The notes below the pieces were generated by a model, which was not told the origin of the DNA, made no database searches, and was given only the letters and a program-made list of their open reading frames with translations. Positions 20,701 through 39,948 of a stretch of DNA of 64,000 bases are shown one piece after another. The stretch lies in contig JAJZQJ010000001.1 of NCBI GenBank assembly GCA_021851895.1, forward strand, positions 135,338 to 199,337, in the 5' to 3' direction. Origin of the DNA: a bacterium. Lineage in GTDB: Bacteria; Patescibacteriota; Minisyncoccia; Phycocordibacterales; UBA6899. Made by a program: the position numbers and the translations under genes. How positions within the stretch are numbered: the stretch's first letter is position 1; the number at the start of each line of letters is the position of its first letter.

Positions 20701-23700
20701 CCAGGAGTGATGCGCATGCGCGCGTCCTTCGCGAAACGTACTGTCCATTCATTGTTCGTGCCATACTCCACGCTTGTCTCGATATCGAGCGGTTTACCCG
20801 ACTGCTCGACGACAACATTGTCCACACTGAATGCAGGCATCCCAACAAACTTTCGTAACGACTGTAGGAAAGAATTGCTCTGTGGCTTATACTGGAATTT
20901 GAATGTTGGCACCTCTTCTGCAGAGAATTCTCTCTTCGCGCTCAAGAAACGATTCACGTGCGCGACTTCCTTATCTCCAAGTCTATCGAAGAGACGATGC
21001 TCACCAGGAAGTACGAATTCAGGTTCACCAAAAGCGGCTTGAACACCATATGCATCTGCAGTCCTTGAAACAACGTCACGAGCAACGATCTGTCCATCGG
21101 CATCATTCGAGCCAAAGAAGCGCGCGCCAACGGTTCCGCCGTCCTGATCTCTAAACATACGCACAAGCGTCCCCTCGTCGAACGGACCACTGAGGGTCAC
21201 GCCACAGGTGCTCGTTGCAAGCAAACTTCCGCGTGCATCGTAAGCACCAAATATATGATGACCTTCACAAGCCGCACGCACTGAGCGCTCCTTGTGATCG
21301 AGCACCGCACTCGCGGCAAGCTGCTCAGGAATACTCTTCCCGTTTTCTGCGATGAGTGTCGCCTTCTCTGCATCTTCTGCAACAAACAATGTAGGTACCG
21401 ACGATGTTGCCTTCTGCTCTCCATCGATATCCATGCTCGAAACATTGCCCGGAGTAAGTTCCATCGACTGCTCCCCTGCGGTGACCGTCGTACCCTCATA
21501 AGTACCAGAGATCGCATTGAGTTTACGTGTATATTCAGGAAGCACCGCCGAGAGGCCTGAGAGGCCAAGAGGTGCAGCTACCGCACGTCCGAATACAGAA
21601 TGTGCCTTCGCTGAAATAGGACCGGTCGCACGAATGACCGCATTGTTTGCCACATGTTCAAAAAGCGCCGTCTCACCGTAAAGCAGTGTACGTTCATCAT
21701 GACCATCAACGACCACATGGAGCTGCGGTGCGAGTGCAGTAATGGTGACATCAGCCTCCTCTCCGCCTGGGCTCATGAGCACAGCACGTGGCGTCACAAC
21801 CGAAGTCGTGAAAGGTGCCCATGGCTTACTCGAAGCCTCGGCATCAGGATTTCCCGCATAAACATAGATGCGCGGAATGATTCCACCATTCTGCGGCATG
21901 CGTACCCAGATCATTCCGGTGTGGTCACGAATGTCAAAATCAGCGATCCAATATGGCAACTCATTCAATCCATCCTCATCGGAGAATCGAATGTCAGAGC
22001 CGTCGTTCTTCACGTGGTTCCAGAACTCAAGCGGCATCTTATTGAGCGCTATCGGCACAGCAACCTCATTTGAACTCTCCGCATAAGGCAGTGTGACATC
22101 GATCGGCATACGCCAGTTCCATGATCCATCGAATTCGGTATGACCGAGTCCATATGCGCCACTTGCAGCAACCGCCTCGACATAGATATCGCCTCGGGTA
22201 TTCAGTTGCGTATCGTAATTGAAACGGAAATACTGTGTAGCGCCCGGCTCGATGTCGAATGGATTGGTATAGGACACCTCATGTACCGAGGTAGGAAGGA
22301 TATCGCTCGGCATCTCCGAGAGTAATGCATCCATCGCTCGCCCGAAAATATTCTGATCGTCCCTAAAGGAACCAGAATAGATGGCATCCGGCACAAAATC
22401 CCTGCGATAGACCGTATCTTCCTGTTGACCAACTGCGGTCACTTCAGAAAGACAGCTCGTCTTGTCGTCGCTCAATGATGCACATACATGTGTCTCATTC
22501 GAATCGGCACAAGAGTAGCCGTTCGTTTGTGCAAGCACATCCGAGCTCGTTGCGGAAACCCAACCTGAAGAACACACATAAGCGATCGGTGCAGTGCGTG
22601 CTTCGACCACCTTGTGCGGAACGTTATGGGAATACTGTGCGATATCGGTCACTCGCCCACCATTTTCAGGAAAATGGAACGAGAGTCTCACGTGTTCTGG
22701 GTTCTTCCCAACATTAGTGACGGAAACATAATCCTCACCACTACCAAGTACCGCATGACGATCCTTTGTCATCGCGACACGCAATTTTGCACCTGGAGTC
22801 TCTGCGACAAGATCATTGAAGTCGATCGTCGTCCCATCCTCAAGTTTCAAATGATCGCGCTCCTTGATTCGTCGCTCAGCATCACGCGCGAGCAAAGCAC
22901 TCTTCACGTTAGGTGAAAGCAAAGCGAGGTCGTCTGGCGCTTCATCCGCAGCAAACCCAACATCGACCCAAGCTGCATCAAGAAGTACCGATGCATCAGC
23001 CTCTCCATCGCGAACGTATTCGACGGAAATCGTCATGTTCGCGAGCTCAGACCAAGAACTTATACCAAGTGGGAAAGTCAAGAATCCTCCACGAGAACTA
23101 TTATCGAATTCTCCAGTAACTTGCTGCTCTCCAAGATAAACCCACTTACCATTACGATAAGCACGGAAGATCACTCGATCAGGATCATCTTGCGGCGCAG
23201 CCCGACCTGCGATCGAAACCATGAGCTGTGCATTGCGTACAGGATATTTCGAAAGCTCTGGTCCAACACCAAAGCCTTCCATGACAAGAAGATGACACTG
23301 CTTTCCAAAAAGCGTACATGAAGCAACCTTATATGGATCGCGATCATCAGGAGTATCAACCTGACTTGCACCATCAGCGACAGAACCCGCATCTGTACCA
23401 ACATCCGCCGCGGAAGTCGAACTTTCATTTGAAGTAGGAGCGGAAACACTTTCTACGGGAGCAGGAGCTGCCGTTGCGCTTGCATCTTCCGTTGTGACCA
23501 CGGTTGACGGAGCAGGTGCAGGAACTGGAGCTGATACTGTCGCGCTCGAAGGCGCAGCTGCCCCACCATCAGATGTTGCGGCTGGCGCAGAAGATTCCGC
23601 AGGGGCCGCAGCAGTGGTCGCTTGTGTCTGATCGCCGCTAGAAGAAGGCACGTCTTGAGCAAGCGCAGTATGAGGAGTGAAATAGCGTGCAAGTATATGA

Positions 23701-24683
23701 CCAATGCGTGCAGATGCTGATGTAGTGGTCGACGTATCTGCTGCAGGCGTAACAGTAGATTGCGCTGCTGGCTCCTCTGGCATCGTTGCCGTAGCAGGTG
23801 CGACGTTTACCGTATCGGACTCTGGCGCGGGAACGATTGCGGGGAGCACATTGTGAATCACTGTCTGTATCGAGTCGATGATCGAAGGTGCCGATGTCGC
23901 GGTCACGACAGGAGCCGATGGAACAGCAGTATCAACTGCAGATGATGTGCTGCTCGTTGCAGCAGAAGCCTCAGTAGAAGTGCTCGTGCTTGAAACTACA
24001 TCAATCGCTGGCGACGATGTCGATACAGAATCGACGGCAGTAGTCGATGCGGCGGATGACGTTGCATCGAGTGTCGTTGAAGCATCGATCATCGGTGCGC
24101 GCTCGGTCACTGCGTATGAGCCAAATGCAAATCGAGCACTGTAGCTGAGATCGAAATCAGCAACACGCGCATCGATCGAGAGATCCTGTACTGCTGCCGC
24201 TGTAGGATTTTCGACACCTTCTCCTGAGACAAAGGAAGGTGAAATATATGCATGCACTTCTTTTTCCGCACGCGCTGAATAGGAGAAGAAGATCGACGTT
24301 GCGAAGAAGACAACCATCAATAGGGATGCCGAAAGTACCGTAACGCGACGATGCTTGCGATAAAACGCAAAGGAGCGCTTTGTGATATATGTAAAAACCT
24401 CAATGAGAAAAACGAGAACCAGATTTTCGCGCAAAGCCTCAAAAAACGCACGTAGTTTTTCCACAACTGCGAGGAATCCGTGGATCAAGGGCTTCAGGGT
24501 ACGCCCATGACGCTTGTAGGTCTCAGAAAATGCATGTGCAAAAAAAGATAAAACGAAAGAAGTCACCTCCAGGATAAATGCAAAAAATCCACGCAATGCA
24601 AAAGCGACCGTGCGTGTGCAGTGTGAAAACCATTTCCTCCAAGAGGGCGTGGTCATTACATTGATTTTACCATTTTTAGCCAT
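5790..24683 (-). CDS. Giant (6,297 aa) membrane-anchored surface protein: N-terminal TM helices, S/T/A/P-rich linker, two DUF2341-like modules, FN3-like modules, long Gly-rich beta-helix-type repeats, three tandem ~780-aa repeat units
   Basis: Single uninterrupted ORF of 18,894 nt. N-terminal hydrophobic helices; about 270 aa of Ser/Thr/Ala/Pro low complexity. DUF2341-like segments (WNWRMPIDVTLPYAESS...IRFSDEDG near nt 21850-22140; WPYRERVSITNNTSS...DIRFTAADG near 7700-7960). FN3-like ...TTYWWRVRAKDPTGSTQYSDWS. Triple repeat ...NDP(S/A)GxPGxxxWDDS at nt about 12760, 10390, 8110. Confidence 0.8.
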   Translation of the reverse strand: MAKNGKINVMTTPSWRKWFSHCTRTVAFALRGFFAFILEVTSFVLSFFAHAFSETYKRHGRTLKPLIHGFLAVVEKLRAFFEALRENLVLVFLIEVFTYITKRSFAFYRKHRRVTVLSASLLMVVFFATSIFFSYSARAEKEVHAYISPSFVSGEGVENPTAAAVQDLSIDARVADFDLSYSARFAFGSYAVTERAPMIDASTTLDATSSAASTTAVDSVSTSSPAIDVVSSTSTSTEASAATSSTSSAVDTAVPSAPVVTATSAPSIIDSIQTVIHNVLPAIVPAPESDTVNVAPATATMPEEPAAQSTVTPAADTSTTTSASARIGHILARYFTPHTALAQDVPSSSGDQTQATTAAAPAESSAPAATSDGGAAAPSSATVSAPVPAPAPSTVVTTEDASATAAPAPVESVSAPTSNESSTSAADVGTDAGSVADGASQVDTPDDRDPYKVASCTLFGKQCHLLVMEGFGVGPELSKYPVRNAQLMVSIAGRAAPQDDPDRVIFRAYRNGKWVYLGEQQVTGEFDNSSRGGFLTFPLGISSWSELANMTISVEYVRDGEADASVLLDAAWVDVGFAADEAPDDLALLSPNVKSALLARDAERRIKERDHLKLEDGTTIDFNDLVAETPGAKLRVAMTKDRHAVLGSGEDYVSVTNVGKNPEHVRLSFHFPENGGRVTDIAQYSHNVPHKVVEARTAPIAYVCSSGWVSATSSDVLAQTNGYSCADSNETHVCASLSDDKTSCLSEVTAVGQQEDTVYRRDFVPDAIYSGSFRDDQNIFGRAMDALLSEMPSDILPTSVHEVSYTNPFDIEPGATQYFRFNYDTQLNTRGDIYVEAVAASGAYGLGHTEFDGSWNWRMPIDVTLPYAESSNEVAVPIALNKMPLEFWNHVKNDGSDIRFSDEDGLNELPYWIADFDIRDHTGMIWVRMPQNGGIIPRIYVYAGNPDAEASSKPWAPFTTSVVTPRAVLMSPGGEEADVTITALAPQLHVVVDGHDERTLLYGETALFEHVANNAVIRATGPISAKAHSVFGRAVAAPLGLSGLSAVLPEYTRKLNAISGTYEGTTVTAGEQSMELTPGNVSSMDIDGEQKATSSVPTLFVAEDAEKATLIAENGKSIPEQLAASAVLDHKERSVRAACEGHHIFGAYDARGSLLATSTCGVTLSGPFDEGTLVRMFRDQDGGTVGARFFGSNDADGQIVARDVVSRTADAYGVQAAFGEPEFVLPGEHRLFDRLGDKEVAHVNRFLSAKREFSAEEVPTFKFQYKPQSNSFLQSLRKFVGMPAFSVDNVVVEQSGKPLDIETSVEYGTNNEWTVRFAKDARMRITPGKLTLRMQIHEGSSTYEDSYDFYWALLAVNFNKATYEQGETAQITMGALSDTGNTICDARLKLFVTTPASTTIEVPVTASNDCNGNNITDVPDYTASYTPVDAGKYMVRLVRLDDAENILADVRDTFSVVPHMTYVIERSGPTRINPTALYNMTLRVFSREPYKGKISDLIPGDFDVVERGGGTLDWTDETHAVKRISWDVDMNPGEVYQFTYRFDAPDISPYMFFLGPATIGDGANAYTEPRTWQVASDAAGKMIIYWTDGMSIPAGWDLVSSSTGPFFDRWAMGSSTYGITGGATTHTHTFTTSVSSAVYTTAVPAAGTTNFLSYKDHTHAFTPTFGDGSNLPPSLSLRVLRSQTAGEVNLPAGAAVLFESIPSSGWNALTSMEGNYPYGENSVGMATGSPTHAHSVSGTLGAPTGGPTYARRTSGTYPYVSTVTHTHTLISTTTPPLSNDPPYVTYRLAQSTAAGPVPNDAITMWDADPAAGWINLSSDGGVLSNRFVKIAAAAGATGGHASHDHPDLLGLPTNAGVGSARATVTSGSLFGADPNHTHTVDLASFSTTSNLPPFITVVFAKRSVGIPMFSQTDYRFYDNVNDLTPVDPWPAGAVDVTEDMPVADATYRFRPGSVFRVRMGMHVENATSTAGLFPLKLQYAADNNCASALNWNDVGAPGSGAPLMGYDNTLVNEGAALPSALLSTTTPGREQAYRESSGSVNFVNTTGIGENAEWDWSLEAGTTLASSTQYCLRMVEDSGKILGAYQNFPSFITNNAPFAPDLKTPFNHEKISTTTPTFTFSAADDESNTEHYEVQIDTDPNFGAPFVDLSTTNAASNFLNVNNPTNKAPYTSGDTVQFTVPQAKALTNNTTYWWRVRAKDPTGSTQYSDWSIAKAITVDTSLNVSAWFQTTDAQFAQDVSTGLTVTGNAVRLASTSTSGTIVSPELIFSEGTMGTVWGSLEFTKDAGGGITFQIEYKDLSGTWSLVPDSLIPGNSTGLSVTTSLKALDPQLYPSLRVRANFTNTATPVLSDWTIKWAYKTLAPTITSPFSHASVASSTPFVFSAIDPQSYPIRYWFSYSTDPTFAASTTCYSDTQTPTAPACGTFTDMTSGGTAPFASGHTIKFVPSAPLTSGTTYYYRIAAYGVGGGAWSFWSDTRAVTAQAAAPAYTTWFQTMAGQFKMDTLSGVYANTSNSVAVATTSDRVLMVYGSGSNPNPKYRFYEAGALGAEGNALSINSTVLWSVAKASPAYDQFILGTMGADRAMSFQVFENDIWSRMLTMPASGPSATRKSFDVAYEALSGRAVAVACNGMDASYAVFDGSTWGAVQSLNLPFTTNCELVKLASNPIQNQILALFRNTGSSFTAEEWDGTQWVASREFTFSASAGVVEPAHDAMDIEFERTSGRAVAIVGANTTRGFRYRIWGGSNWSGAEAAYTNLGGGATIAKLAWGKLVRDPASNDLELCTNSQYSATDDGAYTDYVRFTNTAPVSVAPGEYWPYSRHAQSNSCIYETKPGRTGRLMVVADESWAIADGSATNNHTIWDARNVAAGTWQSGSTSNTNKLWTWSGTTYQWGGVEAWTTKLARASASGDVLAMILSRSPSLRYMFSIWNGSAWTTPQNIATPSVSTKPYGAPFDLATQEGLSTGRIYSSPINFADGQAPAWRQARFNTSIPGGSTALVSLEYLDPTGNWTRIPDNDLPGNSVGTSTSPIDLSGLNVGTYTTIRLRADLACNGLTNCPTLNDWTVDWAQGLAVGGIARDHDRTTVLTSGTVSVAVNGVPSAQTGSIDATGHWTIPSVSYRNGDVVTAWINNPGAANRAVAVAKFMGAGSLSNMELSRRWLTLGDLTQTGETISNADLGLIDYRNETSGATSTSIFHNVDASGNLTLCASTLLPCPDASLAVLSGTTWRPQSTGSVTNTMYAHVIEGETNADANIIKISGDWRNSGIFTPGTGRTVFNATSSVHTIDNTGASQYKFNDVTFGESATTATWQTTTPLYLNGSLAINYGTLSPGAQPLSIESSLSIGANGKFTKGTATTTFLGVPVATWSDLSSGGQDLGNILIDGSPKSLSLSSGVHATNVTIASGDTLFFGVNTLSLSGSFENDGTVNGGTGKLLMAPVAAATIKQGSAVLNNVTLQSGSVSWVDTSATTSGDVLVSGGAHTLPVNTLTVGGGFTQTGGTFTASNQTILNGTSANKQMSAISSFKALSFTGTGSWNFISSATTTGELVISGGAVTLPSGTLTVGGNFSNTANIVHNGGTLFMNGGTQTIALGGKTIGGVTAGGTNLTFVDTNVIAAGSIIVNAGSTLNFPTNGSLTVGGSFINNGTANANASLLSMNRASGAATLSAGTTVLSGLGIAGGGNFTIVGNTRVSATTTIGTVGSFTMQTGNELRVDGFFTNAAANVNTTWTGSTLRLTSGATMSINTKNTGDDDYGAIILDNGTQLRMWNSTATSVTTNAGSSLYGQNWGAVSGALRIYGTYSQNSGSAYWNNGTDFDGTLLSTPRPVAVAIAGGSTLNFVPNTALEIVGAPSATTTVSALSGTYAVNLATSTLSAQYATLSNLGIAGISITGSSTLAAFDDVDISAGVNSGYAMTLTKEVIDANAGKQYAHDMWRSGGFTGTKNVRVTSASTNYIRFKQHGGNIAGENFDNDPSGDPGEVRWDDSSYIISVSGTVYDKNLLPMGATVCDGVTAVVRVQVTGGGAFGGTCGAGGNFTVNGVTFSGETTMSIYLKGNPNAKAVTVTRGASVNLSGIALYQDRVILRHEDTLAMTNAALAGFDADNDPDMLFTSNSGTLNIPSNDELWIWAGKTFTPGGNVTTGTGGTGVYGGALHIDNGATLNAQSTELFSIGGRLQADSGAVFNTASSTVQLTATDARTIAGVNPFTFWNLSFTGTGSWSLASDIAVANTFDLASGTLLGTGNITTQNGATGAGALAMTGGTFALPNGGSWGGPNPWTAFNLTLGDGTTNSTTTKSGVGTTTVAGVLTVSMNHDLDLATHPLTLTATGTPLVVNGTIDTTGSTVTYASAGATNVTNIVYNGLTFLGSGTYTLPSLALVVKGNFTVGDGITTPTVTGLSGDPLLSILGDVSIASGATYIASDAATTTVKGNWTNAGTFTNSLGLVQFIGSGVKTIAAGNSAFGRVDFNDPLGSWTLTGNTTASVVSLSDVSSWTLASGKTLEIDNAFLNLVGSAKTTWTGSTLYLNTGNRVALNTKTSGADVYNILKLGVNTEAVMWNSSSTQMVTAAGSGVLSMNHAGVNGDLYIFGDYKNSSAPEYWDYTKDFDGETLGTPRAARVRFASGATATYSGTSILEMVGDPSATTTVRALSGTYGLTIGGATTSMQYLDISDANTTGVSLTGSVKVAGMNDVVFRNPSGTGSMMTVAGSVISANPVKIMYRLGFIASGGNNVTATGTTASAWRFVNHYGGRDGEAYDNDPAGNPGYLIWDDSTAQFTLSGHFYKSDGVTVSSACNGVSQNVVLRVINASTTVATACSAADGSFSIPNILPAGNDVLAVFATSTSGVKAVTYTYDPLTNIADYDLYENTVIVRNEQSNPITNALIDGFDKDQSSNIPARVVSNALTLDTNTKLLVWDAKSFAPGGNVSIPGNTNTSSIEGDLELRPGSTWTTNGADVYTIGGDLSIGAGAHVAGTSGDFTFTSAVAGRSITSASPSTMTNLTFNGAGSWTMSGIATTTGDVTITTGTVTLPSSSLAIGGSFLNSGTFSANGGAVYMTATSTGRQIRTSGSAFKDLTFLGTGAWSFLDNATTTGNFTIASGTPTLPAGALAVGGDFQNIGGGFNANGGTLSLSGSGTRLLVPGGSTFANLRIANGDFSTNVANATTTGDVYIDSGSLALPTEVFSVGGTFKNIAGAFSAGASSTVRMTATTTGKLINPGNSTFTNLIIDGAGGGFTIEANATTTKSMTIKTAAAFVQSPSTRLVVQDLFTNNVGGTWTGSTLRLEKTGVSSINTKSASASSYSTIDLGPSAQVSVWNASSTSVSTGSGAALYAQNYANVNGALQIYGQYVRNTGADYWSATTNFDGTPIASRTVNVRFAPGSSGTWNTGTELHIVGTSVATTSVQSISGNYDLTVSDGTFEGRYLKVRNTTGNGIQLLGNTHILALDDADLATGVDTGNILSIDGATVDMNAGAILSNDMFALGVGHTSGVNAYLNGTSTNALNFMSATGNLAGEAFDNDGGGDCGAFRWDDSSCQFVDQRYYRWRHDDGTEAVPDSEWFGGATSSWPYRERVSITNNTSSAASNVAVLVKLPYHSQMQADYRDIRFTAADGVTSIPFWIDTYTTAEANVWVKVPTITANAASDIYVYYGNSAATAASNGANVFTYFFDGESGLTGMSGDTGAFKTVDMASRSPLEQLGLKYLRAMTDTGQTLGMANLSAGVSRGSVVGTGVTIRENLYIDGTSNDDTCLTFGANSTSGSNWGFCVSPQQAAKNVRLVKDATKDGYIPNASAEVSSQDITLSTAGWYSARIDWEAIGKITAWLYDPNGNQVANISATDSYNPGSGIGFSYWYQHGGWDNVTATPLVKGTPTVTVLSPQQHGGASWITPENTAYGTASLGEKVRLRFSIRNTGTPLTNQQLELDYAIKGAAPNCESVADVNYTPVLPASSCATQDVCMSTSTYFMDGDPTTPLLSTPKGLDFVTGRIVEDPSNKTTGLDINQNFFTEVEYALQITPNAIQPSYCFRVSDNGNRLVSYTKVAEASVSHPPKISNWNWTTPTLSLINEGGTTTVMATGTVTDYSGYTDISPVATGTIFRKSLGESCMANDNNCYTGGKTQCSLSDCAGISCTLTCTADLQYFAEPTDIGAYAGDMWTAAVHVHNMADVYDNATADATLNTLKALAFTTGDVDFGSLDIGSTTPAYANPTATLQNTGNAQFGLDIAGTDLTTTGSTIPVDNEKVATSTFDYSSCTLCTTLSTSTTPLSLTFPKPVSTTPVVNNLYFGLYIPFGTKPLTHNGFISVSAN

Positions 24684-24868: not shown

Positions 24869-26371
24869 TTATCGCGAGAGCATCTTGCGAACGTCCTCTG
24901 CCTCTTTTGCGAGAAGCTCTTCAGAGAGATCCATCGCCTCGTGAATACGGCGCGTAACCTCCCTATCCTCCGCTGACGGATTCGGTTTCTGATACAGCCT
25001 ATTCAACTGTTCATCAACCTCCTCACGCAACGCAGAGAATACTGATGCAATGCGGTCACGTACTTCATCAGCCTCTCGCTTGGTAAGGAATTTCTCTTGT
25101 CTAAAGGCATTACGCTCATACCAGATGACACCAATAAGACCGCCAATTGCTGCAAAGAGTGCGGCGATTCCGATCATCGGCCAAACTGAATTCGTCTGCT
25201 GATCTGCAGCGGGTGCATCAGCCTTCACTGGTGCATTGACCATGAATGCTGTTTCCGCTGAGGTGGTATTTCCACCAACATCGTAGGCGATGATCTTGAC
25301 GCTATGACTACCATTAGGGACTGCGAGCAATGGATACTTACCATCGCGCACCTCTGCGAGGGAGATCTTCTTAGCCTGTCCCCCATCGAGAACGATCTCA
25401 TAGTTTGCAAGACCCGAAAGTTCGTCAGTCGTCGAAAAGGCGAGTGTAACATTGTTCTCCTTTTCGGGAACTGTTGCCGTCACTGTGAACTCCTTTGGGG
25501 GAACACGATCAACAAGGAACCTTCTGTGCGCCGTTGGACCCCAACCGGATGCATTCTTATATCTTATATGAAAATAATTCTCCCCATCCTTAAAATCCCT
25601 AAATTCCTTTTCTGCGATTGCGGGATCATATGACTGCTTCGGTATAGTGGTGCTCGACTGATCGACTTCGAGTCGAACGACAGAGACATCAAGCGGAAGC
25701 TCCCAAGAGAACTTCGCGGTGTCCCCACCGTAATAGACATCCTCTTTTGGATGTGTAGTTGACGTGATGATCGGGAGTTCAGGAAGGTCAGACGCAACAT
25801 TACTGCCTGAGCTCGAAGTATTATCAGAGGATGAAGGTGCCGATGGACCTGGATCAACATAGCCGCCTGGCCCAACACTAACACTAAGCGCACTCCCTGC
25901 CTGGTACATATCAGCACCAGAGCCATCACCCGCGAGAATCGATCCCTTATCTACAGTGATACTTGTCGTACCTTCTTTCTTTGCAGTAAACGTGACCTGG
26001 ATGATCTTCTTTTCTCCAGAGATCGGCGCAGTATGTCCACCCTCAAAAGTCACCGTGCCTTGACTCGCCGATATCGCTGGCTCAACCGCCCAAATAGAAA
26101 ACGCTGAACCATCCTTTACGATCTTCGAGGCACTCAATGCTGCAGGATCGAATTTTATTGTCGCGCTGCCAGCGTTGTAAACTTTATCACTCGTCACATC
26201 GACGGAAACCGTGAATGGTTTTCCGACGACAGTCGAAACCGCGGGTGGTACGAATTGATAGGTGGCCGCTTCGGCACGCAATGCCAAAGCTGGCGCATAG
26301 AGAAATGCGCCAGCGATGACCGCGACTATTTGTAAACGTACGCGAGAAAACATGATACTATTCTGAATCAA
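24869..26371 (-). CDS. Cohesin-like domain surface protein with C-terminal TM anchor and cytoplasmic coiled-coil tail
   Basis: Signal peptide; N-terminal beta-sandwich resembling the cohesin fold (FTVSVDVTSDKVYNAGSATIKFDPAAL...TVTFEGG...IQVTFTAKKEGTTSITV); Ig-like middle region; TM helix PMIGIAALFAAIGGLIGVIWY near the C-terminus. Start overlaps the hsp20 stop by 14 nt. Confidence 0.5.
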   Translation of the reverse strand: MIQNSIMFSRVRLQIVAVIAGAFLYAPALALRAEAATYQFVPPAVSTVVGKPFTVSVDVTSDKVYNAGSATIKFDPAALSASKIVKDGSAFSIWAVEPAISASQGTVTFEGGHTAPISGEKKIIQVTFTAKKEGTTSITVDKGSILAGDGSGADMYQAGSALSVSVGPGGYVDPGPSAPSSSDNTSSSGSNVASDLPELPIITSTTHPKEDVYYGGDTAKFSWELPLDVSVVRLEVDQSSTTIPKQSYDPAIAEKEFRDFKDGENYFHIRYKNASGWGPTAHRRFLVDRVPPKEFTVTATVPEKENNVTLAFSTTDELSGLANYEIVLDGGQAKKISLAEVRDGKYPLLAVPNGSHSVKIIAYDVGGNTTSAETAFMVNAPVKADAPAADQQTNSVWPMIGIAALFAAIGGLIGVIWYERNAFRQEKFLTKREADEVRDRIASVFSALREEVDEQLNRLYQKPNPSAEDREVTRRIHEAMDLSEELLAKEAEDVRKMLSR

Positions 26372-27253: not shown

Positions 27254-28939
27254 CTAGCCCGTCCATGCAGAAAGCAAGATCGAGAAGTCTGTCATATTTA
27301 CGATACCATCGTTATTGATATCTGCAGTAGGAGATGATTTCTTCCAATTGAATAGCAACATAGAAAGGTCTGCGAGATTGACCTTTCCATCACCGTTGAT
27401 GTCCGCGCGTTTTCTCATGTCTCCTTGCGGCTTCTCTCCAACACCGAGGAGAAACGCATTCGAGAAAAGAGAATTACCCTGTCCACTGATGAGCGATTGC
27501 GCACGCAAACTATATGTCCCCTTTCGCAATCCGTCAGTTGGCAGATTGAGTGACCATGCACCAGCTGAATTCGCTGTTGTCGTTGCAATGACAAGCGGCA
27601 TCTGTAATGGATCCTGCTCAGTAAGCACAACAACCTGAACTGCCGCTGACGGTATCGCGAGACCCGAGACGAGCGTTTGCTGTCCTGGTTCGATACGCTG
27701 AGCAGGTGCGGTGATCGTCGGGGAAAGAAATACAGGACCTATGTTATTTTGCGTCTGCGCAGAAATGTAAAGCGTCGTACTGTACGTCGCCGAACGAAGC
27801 CCATTCGCATCGACAGCAGAGATCGTAAATCCATAGGTACCACGGTCGAGATTATTCTCCGAGGTACTAAAATTACCTTGCGTGTCCGCTGAAAGAACCC
27901 TGAATTCCTGTCCGTCTTTGAGAATGCTTACCTGTGCCCCCGGGAATGTTCTACCTGATATATACATTCCACTTTGCGGCAAACTGATACCACCTCCAGT
28001 ATGATCTCCCTCCTGTGTACCTGGCGGTGGTGGTGGCAAACGATGCTCCTTCGGTACAACACCGACATCGAATGTGATCGGATAATCAACATTATTCGCG
28101 GTCAAGCCATACTTTGTGAAACAGCGTATGTAATAGGCGTACGATGTGTCATCCACAGTGTCGACGATGAGACTTTGATTACGATAAAAATTCGTAGACA
28201 GAAAACGCTGGAGTATCGGCATGTCCTCATACGCCACATTTGGTGTCATCGAATAGCGACAAAATGCAGGCAAGTCAGTTTGAAATGAAAGCATGACCTT
28301 CTTCGTTCCTCCAGGCAAAAGCCCTGTAGGCAAACCATCACTTAAGACCGCGGCCATCCCCTGTCCGATCGCACCGACTCCTATCGGATCCATGATATTG
28401 ATGAGGCCGATCGCCATATCGATCACCTTTCCACCGGCACCAAATGTAGCGATCGTATATCGCTGTGGCCCCACAGAGGCACTATTTGTGATCGCATTTG
28501 CTACGGCTCCCGCGCCGATACGCACGCGCACACGCGCACCACTCGGGATAGCAAACTCGGGGTCGCTCGCAAGATGGACCCTTACGTCACCGTCACCCAT
28601 CGGGAGCAAGCTTACCGTCGACGTCGCGGGACCTGCAACCGATTCGAGGACATAAGGCACAAAGTCACTCGATGTCGCAACAGCAAAATCGACGTTCGTG
28701 TAATCGAAGCCATCTGGGAATGTAAAGGGAAGACCTTTCGCATCGAAGCGAATTGAGATCTCACCGTCTGCAGGTATTGGATTAGTTGGAATGAAGGTGA
28801 TGTCATGTGTCGCAGGTACCCCAGGAGCAGATGACGAAACAACATCGGTTGCGAGCTTCAGTTGCGCAGCATCAACAAAAAACGGCATACTCAAAAACAT
28901 GCCAAACAAAAAGAACGTTGTGTGCCATGTGCGTCGCAT
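27254..28939 (-). CDS. Secreted protein with C-terminal type-I dockerin module
   Basis: Signal peptide; Ig-like/CarboxypepD_reg-like middle. C-terminal duplicated Ca-binding dockerin repeat DINGDGKVNLADLSMLL ... DINNDGIVNMTDFSILLSAW. Confidence 0.7.
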   Translation of the reverse strand: MRRTWHTTFFLFGMFLSMPFFVDAAQLKLATDVVSSSAPGVPATHDITFIPTNPIPADGEISIRFDAKGLPFTFPDGFDYTNVDFAVATSSDFVPYVLESVAGPATSTVSLLPMGDGDVRVHLASDPEFAIPSGARVRVRIGAGAVANAITNSASVGPQRYTIATFGAGGKVIDMAIGLINIMDPIGVGAIGQGMAAVLSDGLPTGLLPGGTKKVMLSFQTDLPAFCRYSMTPNVAYEDMPILQRFLSTNFYRNQSLIVDTVDDTSYAYYIRCFTKYGLTANNVDYPITFDVGVVPKEHRLPPPPPGTQEGDHTGGGISLPQSGMYISGRTFPGAQVSILKDGQEFRVLSADTQGNFSTSENNLDRGTYGFTISAVDANGLRSATYSTTLYISAQTQNNIGPVFLSPTITAPAQRIEPGQQTLVSGLAIPSAAVQVVVLTEQDPLQMPLVIATTTANSAGAWSLNLPTDGLRKGTYSLRAQSLISGQGNSLFSNAFLLGVGEKPQGDMRKRADINGDGKVNLADLSMLLFNWKKSSPTADINNDGIVNMTDFSILLSAWTG

Positions 28940-35850: not shown

Positions 35851-36264
35851 CTAGGAAAGGAACTCCCGCAGACCTTCGAACATCGCGTGCGCAGCGTAGG
35901 TGGCATCACCATCGTACAGCGGGAGGATGTAATCCTCCTTCGCCACCGCACCAAGGAGCCCACGAAGTCCATTTCCTCGAACTGCGATCGCGCCCAAGAC
36001 AGGACCATGAAAACCTGACGGCGTACCATTAGGAAAACAATTATGGAGAAAACATTTCCCCACGAAGTTCTCCGTGACACCGAGAAATTCTATCTCTGCA
36101 TGCTCTGCGAAGTGAAGCCTCAGCTTCTCCGTTTCATCATGCGCGAGCGCGAGCGCTGACAACATGATGATCGCCTTTTCCTTGTAACGAAGTCTTCCTC
36201 TGGAAAACTCCATGATATTCGATGCGGGAGATATCTCTCCACTGGTGGGAATTTTCCCTTCCAT
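35851..36264 (-). CDS. Hypothetical protein
   Basis: 137-aa ORF ending at the bidirectional terminator; no family recognised. Confidence 0.35.
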   Translation of the reverse strand: MEGKIPTSGEISPASNIMEFSRGRLRYKEKAIIMLSALALAHDETEKLRLHFAEHAEIEFLGVTENFVGKCFLHNCFPNGTPSGFHGPVLGAIAVRGNGLRGLLGAVAKEDYILPLYDGDATYAAHAMFEGLREFLS

Positions 36265-36351
36265 CGGACGTCCTTAAAAGTAAAAGTGCATGATTGAAAA
36301 GTGCTGCGTCTCTTTTTAAGCGACTCTCAATATACCATATTATATCAAAAA

Positions 36352-36419
36352 GTCAAGTCATGGGTCATGTGTATTGAATTCAAAGCCACTCACCTGTTAA
36401 TTCAGTCATGAGTCATGAG
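36352..36419. repeat. Relic of a GTCATG(A/G)-heptamer element (two arms in direct orientation, 30-bp spacer, no enclosed gene)
   Basis: AGTCAAGTCATGGGTCATGTG ... 30 nt ... CAGTCATGAGTCATGAG; the same heptamer as the IRs flanking the four-helix-bundle cassette at 4179/4584. Confidence 0.5.
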
Positions 36420-36462
36420 AATTAAATTCGAGGATTCCTACCCAAGATATATGAAACCGCTC

Positions 36463-36548
36463 GGATTTTCGCGTGCGGTTGCCTCGCTGGAGCCCGACGA
36501 CGTACAAGGGTACGGCGAGGGCGAAGCGTGAGGCAACCCCGCGCGAAA
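36463..36548. repeat. Long imperfect hairpin / inverted repeat (about 20-bp arms around a roughly 45-nt GC-rich core); possible structured RNA or element boundary
   Basis: TTTCGCGTGCGGTTGCCTCGC ... GCGTGAGGCAACCCCGCGCGAAA with an internal CGTAC-AAGG-GTACG sub-hairpin. Noncoding, downstream of the rpsP terminator. Confidence 0.45.
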
Positions 36549-36588
36549 AGACAGCGGCCGTGATTCTCACCACGACACCCAGAAAAAG

Positions 36589-36624
36589 GAGGTCAAAAAA
36601 AATAAAACGCCGATAGGCGTTTTA
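36589..36624 (-). terminator. Rho-independent terminator of rpsP
   Basis: Minus strand: AACGCCTATCGGCGTT followed by TTATTTTTTTTG immediately after the rpsP stop. Confidence 0.75.
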
Positions 36625-36921
36625 TTCCTTAACCTCCTTTTTCTGAGGAGTTTTTTTGTTGAGCGCATTGACCTTCTTCCCCTCGACGATCTTGAGATCT
36701 GCGAAGATATTGAATACGGTCTCAGATGGCTGTGCACCCTGGCTAAGCCAGTACTTTGCACGCTCTGCGTTTACCTGCGGCTTGCCCTTGCGAGCGTCGT
36801 AGGAACCGAGGTATTCAACGATACCCTGCGTCTTCTTAGGCGAGCGGCGGCTTTCCTGCACGATGACGCGGAAAGATGGGTCATTCTTACGACCAACACG
36901 CTTTAAACGGATTGCTAACAT
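36622..36921 (-). CDS. rpsP: 30S ribosomal protein S16
   Basis: MLAIRLKRVGRKNDPSFRVIV...GIVEYLGSYD...AKYWLSQGAQPSETV. The longer predicted ORF (to 37089) is an upstream over-extension. Confidence 0.85.
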   Translation of the reverse strand: MLAIRLKRVGRKNDPSFRVIVQESRRSPKKTQGIVEYLGSYDARKGKPQVNAERAKYWLSQGAQPSETVFNIFADLKIVEGKKVNALNKKTPQKKEVKE

Positions 36922-36977
36922 GGGTCTCAGTTTAACAGAAAACATGAAATCGTCAAGCAGTAAAAGGCTCTTCTGGT

Positions 36978-37016
36978 CAAGGGAAATCAAAACGCAACCC
37001 AAATATGAGGGTTGCG
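36978..37016 (-). terminator. Rho-independent terminator ending the island operon
   Basis: Minus strand: CGCAACCCTCATATTTGGGTTGCG followed by TTTTGATTT. Confidence 0.65.
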
Positions 37017-37028
37017 GGTGAAAAAGTC

Positions 37029-37310
37029 CTACGAATCGCAGGTGCAGCGCAGCGGGAGGCCATTGAGATGCGCCCAGGGGTCTCCGCACGAAGAGGCGGG
37101 AATGATCGGCTCCTCAGCCTCAGCAACCTCAGGATTCTGGGTGTCGTCGGCAAGGACGAGCGGATCAACGAGCGGGCCCTTGCTGAGACCACAGCCCTTG
37201 CACTCATCGACGAGATCGGCACGGTCAACACCGTCCCACGCTTCAGGATTGGACGGAAGCTGGAGAGGCCTCCGCACGGAACCGACACGCTCAGTATTGC
37301 TACACATCAT
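37029..37310 (-). CDS. Hypothetical acidic 93-aa protein (island gene A)
   Basis: GGAGGAATG-ATG strong SD. MMCSNTERVGSVRRPLQLPSNPEAWDG...ECKGCGL...CGDPWAHLNGLPLRCTCDS. Chosen over the overlapping shadow ORF 36977..37288. Confidence 0.45.
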   Translation of the reverse strand: MMCSNTERVGSVRRPLQLPSNPEAWDGVDRADLVDECKGCGLSKGPLVDPLVLADDTQNPEVAEAEEPIIPASSCGDPWAHLNGLPLRCTCDS

Positions 37311-37444
37311 TCCTCCAGAAAAGGGAGTTTTAGGAGAGAGAACACGCTTTTTTCATCATATGCCTCTCTCTAAACCTGTCAACATTACACGAAATGAAAA
37401 ACCGCGTCCACAAGGTGGACGCGGGAATTGAAGGCGTTGCACGC

Positions 37445-37594
37445 TACTGCTTGAAGAGGTTACTGATGATCTCCTTGGCGGTCCCTCCGCTGATGTTCTT
37501 GGGAGTCGGGAGCTTGGCGAGCTCAGGAGCGAGCACACCATGCTTCTTTTCATGATCACCCGGCTTCTGGGTGTAGGACACGGAACGGTCCATA
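37445..37594 (-). CDS. Small 49-aa protein (island gene B), absent from the ORF track because under 60 aa
   Basis: Minus-strand ORF MDRSVSYTQKPGDHEKKHGVLAPELAKLPTPKNISGGTAKEIISNLFKQ preceded by AAGGAGG 5 nt upstream of the ATG. Begins about 20 nt after the gene C stop. Confidence 0.4.
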
Positions 37595-37614
37595 GGACCT
37601 CCTTGTGGAAATGC

Positions 37615-38505
37615 TCAGTGCTGAAAGAACAGCAGAGCAGCGTGATTGAAACAGTCGAGAAGACCTTGCCTGGTCTCTAGGTCCTCACCGAAGTAAGCAC
37701 CGTCGAGCTCAGCGAAGTAATCTTCCTTGCGACGCGCTTCGAGCACTTCCTCTTGCTGCAGATCCTCGAGTCCCTTGAAGGAGCTCGAATTCTGGATCAT
37801 ACGCGACGAGGCGACGAACTTGGCCGAGGACGCAACGAGCGACGGGAAGTTCCGCATGAGAAGCTCAGCACGCTTCGTGGGATGCAGCCTCACGCACTCC
37901 TCGGGATAGAACCCATCGAAGTAGCGCAGGTCCTGCTGGATCCAGAACTCGCGATCGTTCTCTTCCTCGCGAGCGAGGATCTGGCCGATGCGCTCACGAT
38001 CGCGACGCGACTTCAGGAAGGGCTTCTTGCGCTTTTCGTTCGCGAGTGAGCGGCGATAGCGCAACATCGCGCCCTCGTTCTCACACACCCTGCCCCACCG
38101 CACGATCTGCTCATGCCGCGACGTACGCGTGCGCTTGTTCACGCGCACACGAGGCTCGGGCACATCATCGAAAGCGACTGCGCCGTCCGCGATGAAGTTG
38201 CCGGAGAAGTCGTAACGCTTGTAGGAGTCATCCCCCCACTGCACGCAACACTCCGACCTCCCGGTCCTGCACCAGAAACACATGCAGGGGTAATCCTCGA
38301 TGTCATCGAAGGGATCGGGGTCTTCCCGGCGATCGAAGTCGGGAAACTCATCCAGCTCGCCGAGATCAGGCATCGGGAGAATGCACTCGCACTCTTCCGG
38401 CCGACCGATCTTGTGCCAGTAGCAGTGGCACTCTTCTTCCTTGATGTTCTCCGCGGCGATGTGCTGCAGAGCGGAACCAGTGATGAGCTTCGGAAAACCA
38501 GACAT
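37615..38505 (-). CDS. Cys-rich 296-aa protein with two C-x-C...C-x-C clusters and a basic region (island gene C); function unknown
   Basis: CHCYWHKIGRPEECEC and CMCFWCRTGRSECC clusters; Arg/Lys-rich segment KRTRTSRHEQ...KRKKPFLKSRRDRER. AGGAG SD; driven by consensus promoter 38561-38588. Confidence 0.5.
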   Translation of the reverse strand: MSGFPKLITGSALQHIAAENIKEEECHCYWHKIGRPEECECILPMPDLGELDEFPDFDRREDPDPFDDIEDYPCMCFWCRTGRSECCVQWGDDSYKRYDFSGNFIADGAVAFDDVPEPRVRVNKRTRTSRHEQIVRWGRVCENEGAMLRYRRSLANEKRKKPFLKSRRDRERIGQILAREEENDREFWIQQDLRYFDGFYPEECVRLHPTKRAELLMRNFPSLVASSAKFVASSRMIQNSSSFKGLEDLQQEEVLEARRKEDYFAELDGAYFGEDLETRQGLLDCFNHAALLFFQH

Positions 38506-38560
38506 GGATGCTCCTAGAAAGGAGGTTATTGGGGATGGAAAGGATCAAAAGTTCGTTGTA

Positions 38561-38588
38561 ATTATACCATAAAATATGTATATGTCAA
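38561..38588 (-). promoter_or_regulatory. Near-consensus sigma-70 promoter (TTGACA-N16-TATAAT) for island genes C-B-A
   Basis: Minus-strand TTGACATATACATATTTTATGGTATAAT read directly. Confidence 0.6.
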
Positions 38589-38620
38589 TGAAATACCGCA
38601 CTACTCGGGGAGTAGTGCGG
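38586..38620 (-). terminator. Rho-independent terminator after island gene D
   Basis: Minus strand: CCGCACTACTCCCCGAGTAGTGCGG (11-bp perfect stem) followed by TATTTCATT. Confidence 0.6.
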
Positions 38621-38640
38621 TAGAGGTTGACGAGGAACTG

Positions 38641-38952
38641 CTAGGCCACCTGGGCCAGCAGGAGTGTGCGCTTGGGGGCACGACGATCATGCCGACGCCC
38701 GTGGCGGCGATGGTTGCACTCCTTGCAGGAGCTCGGCCGCGTGTAGCGGCTGAACTTCTCGGAGATGCGCACCTCGCCGTCCCCGAAGCGCTCGTCGCAC
38801 TTGCGCTTGCGCACCTTCGGCACCACCGCGTCGATGTGGTGTTCCGGGTGGTCGAAGTGCTCGAGGTGCTCGCAGCACTCTTTGCCGTCATCCATCATGA
38901 TGAGCGTGAGGCCAGCGAGCAGGGGGTGGACGTGCGCGGAAGAGATCGACAT
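38641..38952 (-). CDS. Cys/His-rich small protein with HNH-like motif (island gene D); start at the ATG giving MSISSAHVH
   Basis: CCEHLEHFDHPEHHIDAV ... SCKECNHRRH resembles an HNH/treble-clef zinc finger. GGAGA SD. Own consensus promoter at 39004-39031. Confidence 0.4.
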   Translation of the reverse strand: MSISSAHVHPLLAGLTLIMMDDGKECCEHLEHFDHPEHHIDAVVPKVRKRKCDERFGDGEVRISEKFSRYTRPSSCKECNHRRHGRRHDRRAPKRTLLLAQVA

Positions 38953-39003
38953 GATGTCTCCAAGAGGAGGGTTATAGTGGAAAGCCAAAGATCTGACAAA
39001 ATT

Positions 39004-39031
39004 ATTATATCACAGATATCATATTTGTCAA
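39004..39031 (-). promoter_or_regulatory. Near-consensus sigma-70 promoter (TTGACA-N16-TATAAT) for island gene D
   Basis: Minus-strand TTGACAAATATGATATCTGTGATATAAT. Confidence 0.6.
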
Positions 39032-39102
39032 TAACTCAAATGTTCTTGAATTTTAAGCATTTCATGCTGTATGGTCTTCCCTATTCCTGCTATACTAGTC
39101 TT

Positions 39103-39381
39103 ATGCAGGATTATGCACCAACAGGCTTACCGACGCTTTCAATACCAGACTTCGGTCTACCGAACCTCGGGATGGGGATTTCGAGCGAAATGCTCTCCAT
39201 CTTCTTTTTCATCGTTATCGTCTTTACCCTCATCTATACGATTCTTCTTTTCAATCAATGGAGGAAGTACTCCCCTAGCCCGCTACGTGCCTTCAAATAC
39301 GCCGCGATCTATCTGATCGGCACCATCGGAATCATCCTCGCACTACTTTCACTTCTTCCTCTCTATGCGGGGAGCCTCTGA
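39103..39381 (+). CDS. Small (92 aa) two-TM membrane protein
   Basis: ATG at 39103 preceded by a TATACT -10-like box. Two hydrophobic helices. The upstream part of predicted ORF 38689..39381 is antisense shadow of the GC-rich island. Confidence 0.4.
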   Translation: MQDYAPTGLPTLSIPDFGLPNLGMGISSEMLSIFFFIVIVFTLIYTILLFNQWRKYSPSPLRAFKYAAIYLIGTIGIILALLSLLPLYAGSL

Positions 39382-39408
39382 TGAAATTATCCTCTTCTCA
39401 CAATCATC

Positions 39409-39948
39409 ATGTCCATCGTTGAACTCACACCGGACGAAACCATTCTCCGTATCGTCCATAGGCACATTTATTCATTTGTCGACGACATGTTCGGCATATT
39501 GCTCTTTTTCGCTCTACCGCTCATCTTTGCGGTGCTTATGATCTATTTCGTGCCGACATCGATTCAGCAATCGATATTCCAAGGCAATCCGAATATCGGC
39601 ATCATCTTCATCGCACTCACTGGAGCACTCGTCGCTTGGATGTACGCTTGGTGGCGGTGGACGGACTATTTCCTCAATGTCATCGTCATTAGCAACGAGC
39701 GTATATACGAGATCAAGCAACGCGGATTCTTCCGTCGTGAAGTTGGCTCATTTGGACTCGACCGAATCCAAAACATAACGACGACACAAAAAGGCGTCAT
39801 CGCAACCATGTTCAATTTCGGTGATCTCTATATTGAGACTGCGGGAGAGAACGAAAACCTCAATATGCTCACCATTCCAAATCCAAGCGAACTCAAACAA
39901 TTCATCAATGAACTTCAAGACCACTTCAAAGCGACACGGAAACTCTAA
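39409..39948 (+). CDS. Membrane protein with bacterial PH domain (YdbS/YdbT-like, DUF304/bPH_2)
   Basis: Two N-terminal TM helices followed by VISNERIYEIKQRGFFRREVGSFGLDRIQNITTTQKGVIATMFNFGDLYIET, typical of DUF304. Confidence 0.55.
   Translation: MSIVELTPDETILRIVHRHIYSFVDDMFGILLFFALPLIFAVLMIYFVPTSIQQSIFQGNPNIGIIFIALTGALVAWMYAWWRWTDYFLNVIVISNERIYEIKQRGFFRREVGSFGLDRIQNITTTQKGVIATMFNFGDLYIETAGENENLNMLTIPNPSELKQFINELQDHFKATRKL

Follow-up and report, generated by a model that had tools for sequence, protein, structure and literature searches.

What is the GC-rich block of four small genes that separates the ribosomal-protein gene rpsP from a membrane-protein operon in this genome of the candidate phyla radiation (CPR), and is it foreign DNA? 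The block lies in a 64-kb stretch of contig JAJZQJ010000001.1 (assembly GCA_021851895.1), the whole of which is referred to below as the window. It forms a cassette of about 2 kb in which four genes, D, C, B and A, follow one another head to tail in that order on the minus strand, from 39031 to 36993. Given the architecture, conservation, coding status, clade restriction and codon skew observed for it, the cassette is best explained as a clade-specific orphan locus of vertical descent that encodes abundant small metal-binding proteins acting together. A probability of about 0.55 is assigned to this whole package, and a much smaller one to any specific cellular role for the cassette.

Analysis of the minus strand at 36990–39031 resolves three units, each consisting of a promoter, Shine-Dalgarno (SD) sequence, open reading frame (ORF) region and terminator: P1-D-T1, P2-C-B-T2 and P3-A-T3. 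Promoter P1 (39004–39031) matches the sigma-70 consensus at 12/12 positions (TTGACA-N16-TATAAT, with an extended −10 TG) and drives gene D (38641–38952, 103 residues). D is followed by the intrinsic terminator T1 (38594–38622), a 13-bp stem plus T run that ends 5 nt upstream of the −35 element of P2. Promoter P2 (38561–38588), again a 12/12 TTGACA-N16-TATAAT with an extended −10 TG, drives both C (37615–38505, 296 residues) and B (37444–37593, 49 residues). B is taken to be co-transcribed with C because its strong SD, AAGGAGG, lies between the two genes, the B start being only 21 nt past the C stop. This unit closes with T2 (37402–37424), an intrinsic terminator whose 10-bp stem contains 8 GC pairs and is followed by a T run. 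Promoter P3 (37355–37382, TTGACA-N16-TATGAT, 11/12) drives gene A (37029–37310), called with 93 residues; its start more likely corresponds to the second ATG (37307), giving 92 residues, because that codon shows normal SD spacing and agrees with the orthologs. The intrinsic terminator T3 (36993–37016) follows A and is succeeded by rpsP's own promoter (36956–36929). P1, P2 and P3 are the sole sigma-70 matches of at least 11/12 on either strand of the window, in a scan in which chance alone would yield about 0.02 perfect matches. Most of this layout had been anticipated by an earlier, sequence-only reading of the window. Its four minus-strand ORFs are all present, each transcription unit does have its own hairpin terminator, and the adjoining ribosomal-protein gene is rpsP (PF00886). 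The two 12/12 promoters lie exactly where it had placed them; it had missed P3, so the units number three and not two.

The same arrangement recurs in about nine independent metagenomic loci (L001, identical to the window, L002, L003, L004, L085/L086, L087, L088, L089 and L090). These were found via contigs encoding relatives of C and A, and one of them is the NCBI metagenome-assembled genome (MAG) GCA_035583355.1. Wherever the contigs reach, the layout is constant: a membrane protein, a bPH_2 protein and RNase R share one strand, D-C-B-A-rpsP lie on the opposite one, and the same three promoters, the same rpsP promoter and the same terminators recur. The P1 hexamers are identical in 6 loci, P2 is unchanged in 7, including L087, where B comes directly after it, and P3 is unchanged in 6. 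The terminator stems change by compensatory substitutions, which preserve T1 across 7 loci; T2 is likewise conserved and its stem covaries across loci. B is found in all 8 loci covering its position. These include L087, a contig from DRR125231 that at 9574–9700 presents a natural variant without C, in which B carries its own SD right after P2 while D and A are intact. Three insulated units with strong promoters, SDs and terminators would be expected to confer high, largely constitutive and mutually independent expression.

The leaders of D (38953–38997), C (38506–38554) and A (37311–37348) share a similar end, ACAACC-CTCC-TCTT-GGAG, a pyrimidine tract plus SD that is conserved across loci and common to all three units. 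This motif could fold into a hairpin of 4–6 bp (CTCC-N4-GGAG) sequestering the SD. Such mini-hairpins of the 5′ untranslated region were considered as a regulatory element and dropped, because their predicted stability does not exceed that of shuffled sequence (z scores of −1.75 to +0.64).

All four ORFs show the periodicity of coding frames (GC content at the three codon positions following GC1>GC2<GC3), and their orthologs differ by an excess of third-position substitutions. The ratio of nonsynonymous to synonymous divergence (dN/dS) is 0.11–0.58, with a single noisy exception involving gene B, which has only 49 codons; by gene it is 0.35–0.52 for D, 0.23–0.38 for C and 0.11–0.55 for A. On this sequence evidence A, B, C and D are real proteins under purifying selection.

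Database searches place these proteins outside every described family. No match at E ≤ 1 was obtained for A, B, C or D in Pfam, NCBIfam, PHROGs or PADLOC. Profile searches of the PDB with C, D and A returned nothing meaningful, D giving only a chance match. The earlier statement that no product belongs to a recognised family is supported. Among 5.8 billion proteins, C has four relatives; a full HMMER scan of 1.84 billion cluster representatives with a C profile also returned four, two of them new, bringing the family to about seven members across both protein searches. The corresponding yields were one fragment for D and five proteins for A. C was absent from 185,579 species genomes and from Joint Genome Institute (JGI) metagenome contigs, and tblastn of A–D against the remainder of the window found no paralogs. 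Rfam, applied to the whole window at gathering thresholds and to 36300–39400 at E ≤ 1, gave only chance microRNA and small nucleolar RNA matches, which excludes any known structured RNA as the identity of the block. The four proteins thus form orphan, undescribed families confined to one narrow clade of uncultivated, groundwater-type CPR bacteria.

An empty-site search anchored on the flanking genes, not on the cassette, reveals how the site looks without it. In distant Paceibacteria, rpsP and the membrane-protein/bPH_2/RNase R operon are divergent neighbours separated by a short spacer only. Relatives at about 75% rpsP identity have a spacer of 70–600 bp containing none of A–D, and in the closest sister sequences recovered, L091 and L092 (rpsP 88–89% identical), some 150 bp of AT-rich spacer stand where the cassette would be. 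In total, the site is empty in L091, L092, L012, L016, L093 and L099–L101. Because these flank-anchored relatives have an empty spacer, the cassette is read as having been gained by the ancestor of a narrow clade. The sequence-only reading had proposed looking for such empty sites, and related genomes indeed show rpsP next to the membrane-protein operon with an empty or different spacer. The different spacer is that of L006 (7909–9241; MAG GL114_DN_metabat_102), one of the relatives at about 75% rpsP identity, where unrelated small ORFs of 83 residues (with CxxC and HHDC) and 51 residues lie on the opposite strand, each preceded by a consensus TTGACx-N17-TATAAT promoter, in a local GC content of 0.54–0.59. 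The spacer between rpsP and the membrane-protein gene may thus be a permissive site, or hot spot, for modules made of a promoter plus a small ORF.

The gain is not recent: neither the site nor the gene order nor the signals vary, protein identity has fallen to about 50%, and the neighbouring genes are saturated at synonymous sites. Among cassette-bearing loci, protein identity is 46–81% for C, 46–81% for D (orthologs in L003, L085, L087, L088 and L089), 39–90% for B and 39–65% for A; the flanks retain 94–98% for rpsP, 79–87% for bPH_2 and 75–81% for RNase R. Synonymous divergence (dS) in bPH_2, RNase R and the membrane-protein gene exceeds 1 and is often not computable. Horizontal acquisition, which the sequence-only reading favoured, finds no support as a recent event in this combination, in which about nine loci with saturated flanks and cassette proteins 39–90% identical keep the same site, order, promoters, terminators and excess of GC at third positions (GC3). 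That reading had held that syntenic homologs free of a compositional shift would speak against it; homologs do occupy the same position, and the same shift is present there.

The compositional shift itself takes an unusual form. GC content is 0.55–0.63 over the block and 0.45–0.50 in the flanks, confirming the shift claimed earlier; the rise is limited to coding sequence and falls mainly on third positions: the ORFs have 0.56–0.66 (D 0.66), and the spacers within the cassette 0.34–0.47. GC3 reaches 0.88 in D, 0.75 in C, 0.76 in B and 0.67 in A, compared with 0.41–0.60 in 20 other genes of the window, and A occupies only 0.02–0.05 of third positions in all four genes versus 0.17 in rpsP. The orthologs share this skew, with GC3 of 0.80–0.94 for D, 0.76–0.90 for B, 0.63–0.79 for C and 0.64–0.74 for A against 0.35–0.67 for other genes. 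In two-fold codons (TAC, ATC, AAG, CAG and TTC), the cassette shifts in the direction of rpsP relative to bulk genes. Moreover, ATA, TAT, ATAT and GATA are depleted in the cassette, with observed/expected ratios of 0.43, 0.65, 0.25 and 0.41 relative to synonymous-codon shuffles, whereas bulk genes show no depletion of them (0.90–1.01). TAA, TAG, TTAA and GAGG are depleted in cassette and bulk genes alike. A single depleted endoribonuclease motif was considered as the cause of the codon skew and dropped, the depletion being one of AT-rich k-mers in general and partly common to bulk genes.

A donor signature should have decayed by now, because the flanking synonymous sites are saturated; yet GC3 stands at 0.63–0.94 in every lineage. 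The absence of the skew from the spacers, in turn, argues against regional mutational bias or biased gene conversion. These patterns point firmly to selection at the codon or mRNA level that keeps the GC3 skew in every lineage, and the raised GC would then not be a remnant of a foreign donor. Selection against AT-rich motifs in heavily transcribed mRNA (chance −10 boxes, for instance, or RNase sites rich in AU) would fit the k-mer pattern.

Among the alternatives, the one that survives best makes the cassette the domesticated cargo of a mobile element, that is, moron-type modules derived from an unsampled CPR phage or plasmid, fixed in the chromosome and now serving in defence, superinfection exclusion or host-cell interaction. 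Phage morons, known from lambdoid prophages (e.g. HK97 gene 15), are independent transcription units with their own promoter and factor-independent terminator; their GC content is unlike that of their neighbours, and they appear as extra DNA in alignments of related genomes (PMC3594210). The cassette shares each of these hallmarks, having its own promoter/terminator pairs, a deviant GC content unlike that of the neighbouring genes and units that are additions relative to related genomes. The other small ORFs with consensus promoters at the same site in L006 suggest an insertion hot spot, and the fast evolution of the proteins (dN 0.3–0.6; between the window and L004, A is 39% and C 81% identical) would suit genes engaged in conflict. 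The differences are nonetheless substantial. The cassette consists of three tandem units in a chromosomal position between rpsP and the RNase R operon that does not vary among about nine loci, and the 64 kb contain no phage genes. Profiles of C, D and A find no relatives in 2.9 million viral contigs (IMG/VR), tblastn with C finds none in 50,697 phage records and none in 72,556 plasmid records, and PHROGs and PADLOC return no match. No tRNA genes exist in the window, no direct or inverted repeats bound the cassette, and no integrase-like or mobility domains occur among the neighbouring genes, which are housekeeping genes. The phage or plasmid origin suggested by the sequence-only reading finds no foothold in any of these searches. 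Finally, the cassette has been inherited vertically until synonymous saturation with its composition retained, and a GC3 skew that has outlasted saturation is unreadable as a donor signature. In operation the cassette resembles several morons side by side, yet the phage context that defines a moron is absent, and an origin as mobile-element cargo is considered unlikely.

Comparison with genomic islands leads in the same direction. Deviant composition, a site that is empty in relatives and lineage-specific content are common to both; the cassette differs in having no integrase, tRNA target, flanking repeats or identifiable donor, and in a deviation that is confined to ORF third positions and is maintained in all descendants with no amelioration.

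The four proteins carry conserved features that bear on their possible function. Protein A is acidic (pI 4.2) and contains exactly four invariant Cys residues, arranged as a CxxCG knuckle (C37/C40) and a CxC at the extreme C-terminus (C89/C91), together with an invariant DPW..NG motif. The protein A of L004 (1015–1302) is only 39% identical to that of the window, with a dN of 0.61, while the same pair of loci shows 81% identity for C, 90% for B and 96% for rpsP; in that pair, A may have been replaced locally or have evolved faster. Protein B is basic (pI 9.5) and ends in a conserved LSGxTAxE[IL]IxxLF motif.

Protein C (pI 5.2) is the most elaborate of the set. Its N-terminal half contains two CxC[YFH]W[HC]xxG[KR]PxxC clusters with an acidic DDYPDFD linker between them. 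These are followed by a conserved DGAVxFDDVPEPxVRVNK motif (invariant DGxVxFDD.P.P.RV.K), by basic segments predicted to be helical and by a conserved, Ser-rich C-terminal region, RAELLxRNFPxL...IASSxxIQxSSSFKGLE. In gene C of L085 (about 9180–9300, GCA_035583355.1), the basic patch that is conserved elsewhere (TRTSRHEQIVRWG..CENEGAM) is swapped for the unrelated HRVNRIAELEHHGLIVVGLG, with conserved sequence flanking the swap on both sides; this may represent a compensated double frameshift.

Protein D is basic (pI 9.2), has 10 His among its 103 residues and retains C27, C52, H7, H9, H35, H38, H81 and H84 as invariant positions, its motifs being SAHxxHP, DHPxHxI and NHRxH followed by a basic tail, RRAPKxxLLLA. 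The CKEC and CC strings are confined to the window and L088. Other sequences take their place in L003 (TCLRLE and ERELNH), L085 (REGNH), L087 and L089. In L088, a 700-bp contig of the European Nucleotide Archive, an in-frame TAG at 204–206 replaces the GAC of the window (codon 41); the ortholog is otherwise 81% identical, and the TAG could reflect an assembly error, a pseudogene or recoding. A 230-residue plus-strand ORF (38689–39381) runs antisense through D and joins the 92-residue membrane protein to the antisense reading of that gene. The public annotation of L001 lists it as a gene. It was rejected here: it is open only in this genome, and because stop codons close its antisense extension in L003, L085 and L087, it is taken for an artefact, a GC3-rich gene having few stops in its antisense frame.

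Structure prediction with AlphaFold2 (AF2), using an alignment of 4 sequences for C and 5 sequences for A, gave models too poor for a fold search and unusable in both cases: C reaches a predicted local distance difference test score (pLDDT) of 40, and A a pLDDT of 55 with a predicted template modelling score (pTM) of 0.14. Common descent of A, C and D was also considered and dropped, profile–profile comparisons being not significant; the likeness between C 24–41 and A 73–91 (WHxxGxPxxC) has an E value of 0.37.

Small zinc-ribbon or rubredoxin-like proteins with CxxCG knuckles, including the Cys4 forms of small ribosomal proteins, provide the closest point of reference for protein A. Like them, A is small and has four invariant Cys residues including a CxxCG, its gene has strong expression signals, and a ribosomal-protein gene is adjacent. 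Unlike them, A has as its second half-site a CxC at the C-terminus and not a second CxxC, it has no sequence or profile match, the cassette proteins evolve far faster than ribosomal proteins, and both A and C are acidic.

Together, these features are consistent with the following account of the clade-specific cassette. A single gain into the divergent spacer that separates rpsP from the membrane-protein/bPH_2/RNase R operon would have founded it in the ancestor of a narrow lineage of CPR Paceibacteria, with vertical inheritance ever since. Its products would be small proteins of the cytoplasm, with potential metal ligands predominating among their conserved residues. A, C and D would be structural proteins that probably bind zinc or another metal through their conserved Cys and His residues, A in a Cys4 site composed of its CxxCG and CxC, and C in one or two Cys3-His or Cys4 knuckles that precede basic helices. 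The basic helical region of C would most likely contact nucleic acid or another polyanion, and the acidic A and C may pair with the basic D and B, which would allow the products to act jointly. The codon skew, with few A-ending codons and avoidance of ATA, TAT and ATAT, plausibly serves very high expression by stabilising the mRNA or by keeping it free of spurious internal signals.

Several observations weigh against this account. Expression strength is judged from matches to the sigma-70 consensus, and the promoters of this host are unstudied. Metal binding is argued from conserved Cys and His residues, with both AF2 models (A and C) of low confidence and giving no fold backing. The proteins evolve quickly, with dN of 0.3–0.6 versus 0.02–0.17 in the flanking genes, which is unusual for core structural components. 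A strict four-part complex is not obligatory, because L087 has no C, and the relative P0012 has a C without the first Cys cluster. The codon skew is not simple translational optimisation either, because the choices among four-fold codons differ from those of rpsP (GCA 0.03 vs 0.71, CCA 0.00 vs 0.40).

A more specific version, in which A–D form an undescribed set of very abundant, clade-specific zinc-binding proteins under a gene-specific codon regime upheld by selection, for example as a nucleoid-, ribosome- or RNA-associated or symbiosis-related complex, is only tentatively offered and carries a low probability. If it is true, the cassette would be a natural case of locally maintained, "expression-hardened" genes and not foreign DNA.

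Lower again is the chance that the proteins handle metal, as abundant buffers, stores or chaperones of Zn, Ni or Cu where the organism has little dedicated machinery for the purpose. The 10 His residues of D, 6 of them invariant, with DHPxHxI and NHRxH, the four invariant Cys of A and the CxC clusters of C would all suit such a role, and the high expression predicted from the signals would suit a stoichiometric buffer. The ligand positions, however, are small in number and invariant, which is the pattern of structural sites, whereas a metallothionein-like store would have many; most D cysteines are not conserved. Additionally, no metal transporter or metal-sensing regulator is encoded among the nearby genes, and the proteins match no known metallochaperone family.

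It is quite improbable that the genes were born de novo, or are highly diverged, in a variable GC-rich spacer and have a young, weak or still-evolving function. Their confinement to one narrow clade with no detectable relatives beyond it, their fast evolution and the low AF2 confidence would accord with such an origin, and GC-rich sequence readily yields long ORFs, as the antisense ORF over D illustrates. Against it stand purifying selection on all four genes, invariant Cys/His sets and long motifs, elaborate conserved expression signals, and related empty sites that are AT-rich and only 100–150 bp long and hold no GC-rich proto-genes. Very improbable, finally, is the proposal of the sequence-only reading that D is an HNH nuclease acting with a zinc-finger regulator (C) and peptide partners, or that the locus makes ribosomally synthesised and post-translationally modified peptides (RiPPs) from A/B precursors modified by C: the CC...HxxH and CxxC...H strings of the window's D resemble HNH endonucleases only superficially, its CC and CKEC pairs being replaced in orthologs so that C27 and C52 remain the only invariant Cys, and no HNH model matches at E ≤ 1, while A and B, although small and in A's case with a Cys-rich tail, are conserved over their full length and not as a leader plus hypervariable core, L087 retains both without C, no RiPP-modifying domain (radical SAM, YcaO, lanthionine synthetase and the like) occurs in C or its neighbours, C matches no RiPP enzyme family, and no protease or exporter lies nearby.

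The cassette, read as a clade-specific set of vertically inherited genes, is of interest in several respects. Among the many unannotated genes of CPR bacteria it picks out targets for study, having the strongest expression signals in the 64 kb and ligand patterns conserved across about nine independent loci; the empty sites of sister genomes allow the gain to be dated, and a natural variant without C exists. It is thus a well-delimited orphan module that lends itself to experiment. It also provides a counter-example to the rule that a GC-deviant block whose site is empty in relatives marks recent horizontal transfer. Composition-based island finders would misread it, because its deviation operates at codon level and has outlasted synonymous saturation. 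Should their abundance be borne out, the proteins would be well suited to structure determination and could mark the lineage.

The flanks consist of conserved genes. On the minus strand, rpsP (ribosomal protein S16, PF00886) occupies 36622–36921. On the plus strand, the 92-residue membrane protein (39103–39381) is followed by the bPH_2 protein (39409–39948) and RNase R in a conserved operon, which in cassette-less genomes lies divergently next to rpsP. The window also encodes DnaE, ThrRS, SMC and RNase R, and by comparison of RNase R its nearest genomes, at 58–60% identity, belong to CPR Paceibacteria (Candidatus Lloydbacteria and "Paceibacterota" MAGs). The rpsP transcript seems nearly leaderless, its −10 box TAAACT ending 7 nt ahead of the ATG. 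Synonymous divergence of rpsP between loci is only 0.17–0.30, whereas the adjacent genes are saturated, and its synonymous sites are therefore under strong constraint.

Between the rpsP terminator and the promoter of the next gene, the minus strand at 36451–36556 forms a conserved rod-like hairpin of about 105 nt. Of its 40 predicted pairs, 17 show compensatory double changes, in a comparison of only four sequences (window, L004, L085 and L087). The consensus fold has an energy of −61 kcal/mol, the G-U pairs speak for the rpsP strand, and the hairpin ends in GCGG-TTTCAT, as do the cassette terminators. L086 lacks it, and nothing in Rfam matches it; it could be a structured RNA of a kind not yet described, or else a terminator or insulator of exceptional length.

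The heptamer repeats at 36352–36419, earlier read as relics near the cassette boundary, in fact lie beyond rpsP and not at a boundary, and were rejected as insertion scars on account of this position. Four CATGACY copies are present, 2.3 of them in tandem at 36404–36419 and the others as CATGACC-CATGACT beside a −35 element, and they lie just upstream of the promoter (36368–36329) of a 137-residue orphan gene at 35851–36264; in this position they look like an operator. Farther away, a 6,297-residue ORF (5790–24683, minus strand) is followed by a cohesin protein (24869–26371) and a protein with dockerin and Ig-like domains (27254–28939), so that 5790–28939 looks like a giant surface-protein/cohesin–dockerin cluster in a CPR genome.

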